Below, piece by piece: positions 30,355 through 31,862 of a DNA stretch of 64,000 nt. The stretch is taken from assembly GCA_964016885.1 (NCBI GenBank), contig OZ024741.1, positions 113,460,001-113,524,000 on the forward strand, written 5' to 3'. Source of the DNA: Eledone cirrhosa. Taxonomy: Eukaryota. Position 1 is the stretch's first letter; each line of letters begins with the position of its first letter. Below the pieces are notes generated by a model. That model was not told the DNA's origin and made no database searches. It saw only the letters and a program-made list of their open reading frames with translations. Both the position numbers and the translations under genes were made by a program.

Positions 30355-31417
30355 CTCATAATGATGTCATAAAAACACTGCTGGGAGGGACATACTGGCA
30401 CTTTAAACCAGGCAGCACATATCCCCTTTCAGGTCTGAACATAATCAGTTTCTTCCAGAGACACAGATAGTGAGACAGAGTGAGAGACTGTCAGAAAAAG
30501 AGAGAGAAAGAATCGACTGCAGTACTGGATGGATATTCTTTTAACAATTCTTGGCAGGACTTGAACTCATTGAGTACAGAAATTCAGCTAATTTGCCACC
30601 TTCTATATATATATATATATGTGTATATATATATATATGTATATATATATATATGTATATATATATATATATATATATATATATACATATATATATATAT
30701 ATATATACATATACATATATATATATATACATATATATATATATATATATATATATATATATATATATATATATATATATATATATATATATATAATTAT
30801 ATATATATATATATGTAAGTATGTATGTATACATACATACATATATGTATACAGACGTACAGTAGCATGCATATATATATATATATATATATATATATAT
30901 ATATATATATATATATATATATATACATACAGGTACACATACATATATGTACGTATCAGTTTAGCAGACGTTTATTATAACGCCCGCTTTGTCCGTGTTG
31001 AACAAAAAGGTGACGTGGTTGCCTTAACACCGTACGGCATAAATTCAGGCTGTCAGTTTGTTTACAAACGGACAAAGCGGGCGTTATAATAAACGTCCGC
31101 TAAACTGATACGTACATATATGTATGTGTACCTGTATGTATATGTATATATATATATATATATATATATATATATGTATATATATATATATATATATATA
31201 TATATGTATATATATATATATATATATATATATATATAAATATATATATATATATATATATATGCATGCTACTGTACGTCTGTATACATATATGTATGTA
31301 CGTATACATACATACTTACATTTAAGTAAGTTCCGTACTAAGAGTGAGAAATGAAATTTCGTTTTCATTTTATTAGAACTTATCGTTTTTGGTGCGCCTG
31401 GCCGACTGAACTCACTC

Positions 31418-31494
31418 GATATGCAAATTAGGCTGCTCAGCCGTTAATTTTCATAAGCAAAGTATATACTTTCGAACGTTCAACCATCTGGCAG
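31418..31494 (+). promoter_or_regulatory. Putative snRNA/H1-type promoter: octamer, PSE-position segment, TATA, +1 GGCAG
   Basis: ATGCAAAT at 31421, TATATA at 31463, TGGCAG at 31489; same spacing recurs at 34180/34137/34111 on - strand. Confidence 0.5.
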
Positions 31495-31502
31495 AAGGGT
31501 AT

Positions 31503-31545
31503 ACGGTGCTGATGATAGCTAAGAAGCTTGAAACTAGTACATCGT
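31503..31545 (+). ncRNA. Minimal type I hammerhead ribozyme
   Basis: ACGGTG-CTGATGA-TAGCT aaga AGCTT-GAAA-CTAG-TA-CATCGT: 6-bp stem I, intact core, palindromic ACTAGT stem III, GUA site. Confidence 0.85.
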
Positions 31546-31862
31546 TCCTGTGTCAGTGTTGAACAAAAAGGTGACGTGGTTGCCTTAACACCGTACGGCA
31601 TAAATTCAGGCTGTCAGTTTGTTTACAAACGGACAAAGCGGGCGTTATAATAAACGTCCGCTAAACTGATACGTACATATATGTATGTGTACCTGTATGT
31701 ATATATATATTAATATATATATATATATGCATGCTACTGTACGTCTGTATACATATATGTATGTACGTATACATACATACTTACATTTAAGTAAGTGCCA
31801 TACTAAGAGTGAGAAATGAAATTTCGTTTTCATTTTATTACAACCTATATATATATATATAT

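Follow-up and report, generated by a model that had tools for sequence, protein, structure and literature searches.

A young hammerhead-bearing repeat with a Penelope-like insertion scar and a conserved octamer/TATA block as candidate promoter within its unit

The 64,000-nt stretch of DNA analysed here (the window) is AT-rich animal DNA, rich in (TA)n tracts and dispersed repeats, and bears some resemblance to octopus genomic DNA. Its positions 30814-31845 are occupied by element A, one young copy of a small mobile element that is very common and whose RNA carries a self-cutting ribozyme. At a distance of 2 kb there is a diverged homologue, element B. Both ends of element A abut (TA)n: on the left a microsatellite (30604-30813, delimited by TRF and by the sequence) that is the probable target, on the right a (TA)n tract that passes into a dispersed repeat at its (CAT)n end (31846-31862). 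The element opens with an inverted arm on the reverse strand (30814-30996, delimited by BLAST and the extents of the matches); everything that follows is on the forward strand. A 5'-truncated unit 1 (30995-31379, with a TA tract at 31139-31262 and T4 runs at 31362 and 31368) leads into a spacer between the T-runs and the octamer (31380-31420), which read and contig variants show to be variable in the family. Then come an octamer block (31418-31433), a TATA-like block (31462-31473), a type I hammerhead ribozyme (HHR; 31496-31550) and the body of unit 2 (31556-31785), folded by computation into stacked hairpins and a long hairpin capped by the TA tract 31700-31727. The last 59-60 nt (31786-31845), present in the direct arm only and called the tail here, form a 3' hairpin with T4 runs at 31827 and 31833 in its 3' arm. 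The unit is thus circularly permuted in the genome, in the order body, 3' hairpin with T-runs, spacer, octamer, TATA, hammerhead and body.

Element A holds about 1.5 tandem units. Leaving aside the TA tract, the units are identical at 255 of 257 nt, with 144/144 matches between 30995-31138 and 31556-31699 and 111/113 between 31263-31375 and 31728-31840. This confirms the tandem with a variable TA tract that had been proposed from the sequence alone; the 561-nt period then given for it applies only 5' of the tract, and the offset 3' of the tract is 465, the difference arising because the tract measures 124 nt in one unit and 28 nt in the other. The 5' segment had been described as an inverted copy of the body, and so it proved: it is a reverse copy of the equivalent of ~31629-31785, head to head with the direct arm, matching at 57 of 58 nt between 30814-30871 and 31785-31728 and at 95% (BLAST) between 30926-31006 and 31699-31618. 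The arms join near 30996, at an internal self-complementary stretch of the unit; the inverted arm stops at the equivalent of 31785-31786, whereas the direct arm continues to ~31845. The direct arm itself begins 16 nt 3' of the equivalent of the predicted ribozyme cut. No terminal inverted repeats were found at the unit ends. The segments 29689-30331 and 31892-32658 were considered as terminal inverted repeats of one element and rejected, being copies of a dispersed repeat with several others elsewhere in the window. Two opposite-facing copies of this one repeat flank element A (29689-30355 and 31863-33038), and we take the repeat to be RTE-like.

The hammerhead was delineated by a helix-checked scan, by folding and by family variation. 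It comprises CUGAUGA (31509-31515), GAAA (31530-31533) and ACUAGU (31533-31538), the last forming helix III, with the cut predicted after A31539. Helix II (31517-31528) has 4 bp stacked over a U.U opposition, and helix I (31503-31508/31540-31545) has 6 bp followed by an internal loop and an extension (31497-31499/31547-31549). The CUGANGA / GAAA / UH core, the three helices and the open helix I are those of a type I ribozyme. Helix II lacks the G10.1-C11.1 pair at its base, where U31516.U31529 stands instead, and these two positions carry no variant among the variants listed (40 of 65). In the 64 kb the scan returned two full HHRs, one in A and one in B, whereas 30 block shuffles gave 0.03 on average; Rfam family HH9 aligns weakly to element A (18.1 bits, E=0.061, gathering score 52), and Rfam finds no ribozyme in the 64-kb window at gathering level. 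The sequence-only reading was right to place a complete hammerhead in the spacer, as the scan and the fold agree, and mistaken in calling it the minimal form found in Penelope-like elements (PLEs). That form has a helix II of 7-8 bp, a helix I of 4-5 bp with a poor loop 1, an extra nucleotide between 9 and 10.1, and the G10.1-C11.1 pair, in the account available from Cervera (2014). The ribozyme of element A instead has the proportions of the canonical metazoan HHR, which in the available text of Cervera and de la Pena (2014) has 6 bp in helix I, 4 bp in helix II and a palindromic helix III of 1-2 bp, and acts as a dimer.

The palindromic helix III had also been read as suited to dimeric cleavage, in keeping with what is described for metazoan type I HHRs. 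Computed energies are -4.8 kcal/mol for the ACUAGU self-duplex and, for the active fold of the monomer, 7.5 kcal/mol more than its minimum-free-energy structure; on these models dimer cleavage is plausible. An axolotl ribozyme with the same U.U, HHR_Amex2, is reported to cleave weakly as a monomer (22% in 1 h) and better as a dimer (PMC7229834, in the part available), and by analogy the U.U in place of G10.1-C11.1 would weaken cleavage here. With one HHR in this copy, a cut-to-cut monomer is impossible from the copy alone. The long hairpin that extends helix I spans 31478-31564 (z=-3.07 for 31470-31570). Folding 31490-31836 gives z=-6.9, and one period folded as a circle gives z=-7.3 with 71% of bases paired; part of this pairing is supplied by the TA-capped hairpin, and 31478-31672, which excludes it, gives z=-4.0. 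Such high self-pairing of the unit RNA is also a property of retrozymes, whose monomer RNAs occur in circular and linear form.

Element B (33887-34482, reverse strand), recognised by homology and by the HHR scan, consists of two head-to-head arms with a unit of ~373 nt that has no TA hairpin, and repeats the octamer-TATA-hammerhead layout of element A. Its minus arm carries an octamer at 34180, a TATA-like box and a hammerhead with CUGA at 34088 and a cut predicted after 34055; its plus arm passes through T4 and T8 runs (34402-34414) to the edge of the octamer. The arms are 82% identical, and element B is the older of the two elements. Homology with element A is clear both in the promoter region (score 66 versus 29.7+-4.6, reached in 0/1000 shuffles) and in the body (79 versus 53.7+-6.1, 0/500). 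The 28 nt upstream of the octamer are present on both arms of B, the plus arm begins inside the ribozyme, ~20-25 nt 5' of the cut, and the tail measures ~80 nt.

Comparison of the two elements singles out the octamer and TATA blocks. The octamer block, with ATGCAAAT at 31421-31428, shares 15 of 16 nt with element B, and the TATA-like block (TATA-like box at 31463-31469) shares 10 of 12, which is better than the spacer (16/26), the HHR hairpin (50/84) or the body (73/115), all at 60-63%. The spacing is kept as well: 34 nt from octamer to TATA in A and 35 in B, and 80 and 84 nt, respectively, from octamer to HHR core. Two of the four octamers in the 64 kb stand 80-84 nt 5' of the only two full HHRs, and another, at 23238, has neither a TATA box nor a full HHR. 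Within the family, 31419-31429 and 31459-31473 are free of variants among the variants listed (40 of 65), and none of the 20 variable positions (of 121) among those listed falls in the 15 motif bases, a borderline result (P=0.055). The promoter motifs announced for the spacer are therefore there, as motifs. Assuming U6-type spacing, we place the candidate start at ~31490-31493, inside the hairpin 31478-31564. An octamer and a TATA box upstream of the start are arranged as in type 3 Pol III promoters, and from sequence conservation we lean towards the block being a functional promoter, with Pol III, by inference, somewhat ahead of Pol II as its polymerase. A proximal sequence element (PSE) was not identified in element A, where the gap between octamer and TATA is only 34 nt and no better conserved than the 16/26 given above, and no mollusc PSE was found in the literature searched. 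By comparison, the H1 core promoter, with octamer, Staf site, PSE and spacer all before the TATA box (available text of PMC11340601), has more elements between octamer and TATA than element A. In schistosome U6 the octamer lies ~250 nt upstream, in the portion available of PMC5460494.

The T-runs are less informative than they first appear. T4 is absent from 31452 to 31826 and then occurs at 31827 and 31833, and the element ends at ~31845, 9 nt past the last T4. The T4-free stretch up to about 31827 in the sequence-only reading is thus real, but it does not exceed chance expectation: among 2271 background windows of 337 nt, 468 are T4-free, dinucleotide shuffles give P(0)=0.70, and we reject T4 avoidance as proof of Pol III. 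Both A and B have a T4-free stretch from start to hairpin with T-runs beyond it, again not above chance, and the ends of B depart from the pattern, the minus arm stopping ~11 nt short of the position that corresponds to the first T4 and the plus arm continuing for 68 nt beyond the T8. Pol III would cross the T8 only rarely. The T4 runs of element A form the 3' arm of a hairpin (z=-3.7); given this, and given that the ends of B ignore the T-runs, there is no need to read the 3' end as a terminator. Of the earlier idea that the promoter lies behind the terminator of the preceding unit, what survives is that a promoter-like block follows the T-runs. It does so in many copies and in B, and the template RNA must therefore have crossed the T-runs into the promoter, as the idea of inheritance through tandem read-through or a circle had supposed. 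The logic is not new: in Penelope and HeT-A, a promoter in the 3' part of an upstream copy drives the next copy (PMC2377424, in the part available). The T5 at 31386 of this copy is a T4 in nearly all others (31390 T>C).

Four of the 23 sequencing runs listed were aligned to 31263-31850 (X1, X2, X6 and X21; X1 and X2 are from one sample, and X6 is the one run used of the 17 with a small share). The matches comprise 5,042 contigs in X1, 4,394 in X2, 69 in X6, and 48,522 of 12,467,656 raw reads in X21, so that element A, as had been presumed, is multicopy, and the alternative of a single-copy sequence falls. Contigs continue from the T-runs across the spacer into the octamer (one spans 31333-31448, and in X6 the stretch 31354-31448 reaches depth 155), and this order is therefore family-wide. 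No aligned contig or read covers an entire unit. Loose ends show other copies entering TA-rich flanks 10-20 nt past the T-runs, and one in X6 belongs to another copy that adjoins the same (TA)n-(CAT)n junction. Depth was taken in 18 of 30 bins with repeats skipped, so that the TA hairpin and the true 3' end lie outside its coverage. The ratio of promoter-stretch to HHR-body depth, which is not a copy number, is 0.86 in X1 and 0.83 in X2; by this measure copies would mostly carry the promoter, and nothing suggests that promoterless ones are in large excess. In X6 (31323-31682) promoter depth is 0.23 of HHR/body depth and one variant set dominates; an RNA library or subfamily divergence could account for this. 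In X1 and X2, copies with 31449 A and 31451 G (within 31446-31458) make up about 40% of family depth; the two bases abolish the local T4 and create a second octamer-like word. Reads of X21 start and end at AATT sites (31355, 31426, 31446 and 31603), which are therefore library cuts; opposite-strand joints in this run, mostly involving the 31603 site, were left out.

Family variants mostly spare the RNA fold, and the hammerhead fold is conserved. For all 20 variants lying in 31478-31672 among the variants listed (40 of 65), only four break a pair or the core, compared with 10.4+-1.8 on random reassignment (P=0.00075). Two of these four, 31506 G>T and 31542 T>G, exchange G.U for U.G in one pair; their frequencies agree in raw reads (5%/6% and 52%/49%) and disagree in contigs (4%/35% in X1, 6%/37% in X2), where depth at 31506 is far lower. 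Positions 31496/31550 are mismatched in this copy, and either of two common variants would restore pairing. Loop II and N7 vary, N7 being the sole variable core position among the variants listed (40 of 65); the absence of variants in 12 core nt among those listed is not significant (P=0.21).

A broken PLE lies 10 kb from element A (18659-21270, forward strand), with a pair of inverted terminal repeats and (TA)n at either end. It matches RVT_1 (E=0.00067) and atlas clusters with HTH_animal and RVT_1. We take it to hold a reverse transcriptase (RT), a CX4CXXC linker and a GIY-YIG-like stretch, the linker and GIY-YIG motifs having been recognised by eye; Pfam returned no GIY-YIG match in it. Its repeat also holds a hammerhead-like stretch with a long helix II and AAAA in place of GAAA (~20968-21005). 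The repeat pair is 99.3% identical, its tail is 56-59 nt against 59-60 in element A, and the insertion geometry of the two is the same. Element A shares no sequence with the repeat of this PLE, the one compared (z=-2.4 and -1.3), which is therefore a model and not a proven partner. Partial tandems, an inverted 5' copy, a one-sided tail and a (TA)n bias are the insertion hallmarks given for PLEs with pseudo-LTRs (Neptune, Poseidon, Naiad) in the available text of Craig (2021) and PMC3846280. All of these are present in element A, with a tail (~60 nt) longer than the published 30-40 nt; unlike PLEs, it has no ORF and a canonical instead of a minimal HHR. A PLE protein is reported to nick and extend both strands in AT-rich DNA, and its RT to start at two internal sites whose spacing equals the tail (Frangieh 2024, in the sections available), which would explain a tail on one side only. 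The same sections indicate that RT may start internally at stem-loops and that the HHR is dispensable in vitro.

Several other repeats occur in the window. Two fold-backs, at 57646-57911 (83% arm identity) and 8702-9048 (70%), look like older insertions with hammerhead-like cores by eye, and both fail the strict HHR scan. A near-perfect 94-nt palindrome (36110-36203, 96%) has its centre just past CTGATGA and is possibly a fold-back junction. An element with 504-nt inverted repeats (14407-15826, 94%) sits in (TA)n and has an internal 100-nt tandem, further inverted pieces and a partial copy at 21288-21421. The fold-backs at 8702, 36110, 57646 and 14410 show no homology to element A. A tRNA-derived SINE-like repeat is present in three copies that are 96-97% alike (25389-25730, 57273-57612 and 59888-60221), with an Rfam tRNA match at 25402-25459; it has ~100 nt in common with the (CAT)n-ended dispersed repeat, and the two look like a SINE/LINE pair.

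Among described systems, the non-LTR retrozymes resemble element A in being non-coding, low in GC and self-paired, with a canonical type I HHR, partial tandems, many copies and co-occurring PLEs (available text of Cervera and de la Pena 2020, PMC7229834, and of the 2026 preprint 10.64898/2026.07.22.740005). Element A has the structure expected of one, a short non-coding HHR repeat in many copies with a partial tandem only, and two axolotl ribozymes come close in detail: HHR_Amex2 in its U.U at the base of helix II and HHR_Amex1 in its palindromic helix III (both PMC7229834, as far as available). It differs in the conserved octamer and TATA of its unit, retrozymes seeming promoterless in the accessible part of a review (PMC7761336). 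Its unit, 465-561 nt with a TA-capped hairpin, is larger than the usual 170-400 nt (51-972 in the portion seen of 10.64898/2026.07.22.740005), and its PLE-type inverted arm and tail are absent from the portions of the retrozyme descriptions compared. The same preprint (Li et al.), in the part available, counts as active only copies with two complete HHRs; element A has one at this locus. Newt satellite 2 is a close precedent. Like element A it is an HHR repeat with a short palindromic helix III, and it has the dimer cleavage (PMC6155905, in part) and the snRNA-type promoter within the repeat (PMC2220036, in part, citing Coats 1994) that are proposed for element A. It is, in these accounts, transcribed by Pol II, whereas element A has a TATA-like box, T-runs and an invertebrate-like genome.

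The internal promoter of the schistosome Sm-alpha repeat is of the tRNA type; neither ARAGORN nor Rfam finds a tRNA part in the element A unit. Like element A, Sm-alpha has a type I HHR in a short repeat, and a Pol III promoter is reported for it; that promoter is internal to the satellite, whereas the candidate in element A is of the upstream octamer/TATA type (PMC2220036, in the part available). We found neither a description of this family nor a cephalopod HHR repeat with an octamer/TATA promoter in the literature searched, and PMC10886601 and PMC13652810 contained nothing pertinent; Repbase, Dfam, subscription journals, Coats 1994 and the retrozyme supplements may describe the family. In the giant squid, 235 hammerhead matches have been listed, with no context given in the text available (PMC6962438). 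Pattern matches at 29 metagenome loci, all one sequence and without a BLAST match to A or B, and at two viral-contig loci, without helix II or TATA, were rejected as chance.

Altogether, we favour the view, with a probability of roughly 0.6, that element A is a non-LTR-retrozyme-like element, mobilised by a PLE and with an snRNA-type upstream promoter inside its unit, both PLE mobilisation and the snRNA-type promoter being probable in themselves. In the proposed mechanism, the octamer/TATA block would serve as an snRNA-type (U6/H1-like, probably Pol III) promoter with a start near 31491, and RNA that crosses the weak T4 runs, or host read-through RNA, would include the next promoter. Two hammerheads paired through ACUAGU could then excise a unit-length RNA able to circularise. 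A PLE RT would prime in (TA)n, starting at two internal sites that lie close to the 3' hairpin with ~60 nt between them. Copying more than one unit, it would leave a partial tandem in which a single ribozyme is intact, together with a tail and an inverted arm joined head to head. The template may have been a circle or an uncut linear multimer, both of which fit. The start of the direct arm 16 nt after the cut equivalent hints, in one copy only, at a cleaved 5' end; the plus arm of B, starting within the ribozyme, contrasts with it.

This bears on a serious competitor, that there is no circle at all and an uncut linear read-through RNA is the template, with internal RT start and a hammerhead that acts late or merely trims the 5' end. 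Such a route would suit either reading of the promoter and is a possibility of some substance, short of an even chance. Anole PLE HHR mutants insert normally in vitro, with uncut RNA as the main substrate (Frangieh 2024, sections available), and B begins ~20-25 nt before its cut; against this, circles are reported to be plentiful among the retrozyme RNAs of coral, mussel and axolotl (PMC7229834, in part), the unit of A folds as a compact circle, and its direct arm starts just after the cut equivalent. The promoter raises a separate doubt. Element A might be a promoterless derivative of a retrozyme or PLE repeat that relies on host read-through RNA, its octamer and TATA an inherited remnant or functional at the RNA level and its T-runs the hairpin arm at the RT start. 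We regard this as unlikely, if well short of negligible. A review states that metazoan retrozymes seem promoterless and rely on read-through (PMC7761336, accessible part), no PSE was found in element A, the T4 gap is at chance level, motif invariance among the variants listed is borderline (P=0.055), and B crosses a T8; yet no other block is as well conserved between A and B as octamer and TATA, whose spacing is fixed, while the spacer upstream varies freely.

If the promoter is of the snRNA type, it might be read by Pol II in the manner of newt satellite 2, for which that combination is reported (PMC2220036, in part), with T-runs that do not terminate and multimers as the normal transcript. 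Read-through of the T8 of B and of several T4 runs would then be accounted for, while the conserved TATA-like box and the confinement of T4 to positions outside the start-to-hairpin stretch in A and B point weakly to Pol III, and we hold this mode to be improbable. Least credible of all is a DNA-level origin, with an internal microsatellite, duplication by repair and the ribozyme as passenger. Internal (TA)n tracts, inverted segments and a 3' hairpin do resemble Helitron-associated or MITE-like elements. Yet HHR variation preserves structure (4/20 against 10.4+-1.8, among the variants listed), the head-to-head arm and tail are like those of the neighbouring PLE, and the unit ends have no terminal inverted repeats.

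What is already known includes the HHR repeat, dimer cleavage and the retention of promoters through tandem copies; what merits follow-up is the octamer-TATA block conserved in two lineages together with the PLE-type scar. How animal retrozymes are transcribed and which enzyme mobilises them are open questions in the retrozyme papers, and with a young and abundant copy, a candidate promoter conserved in two lineages and a PLE-like scar, both can be put to the test within one genome. An upstream U6/H1-type promoter would be lost by an ordinary SINE. More speculatively, and in our estimate rather doubtful, A and B could represent a SINE-like class that has such a Pol III promoter and keeps it through hammerhead circles or multimers and more than one turn of copying by a Penelope-type RT; if so, the two would be two old lineages of that class. 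If the PLE reading is true, the insertion scars would be direct genomic evidence that PLE enzymes move retrozymes, which has hitherto been argued from co-occurrence and phylogeny.
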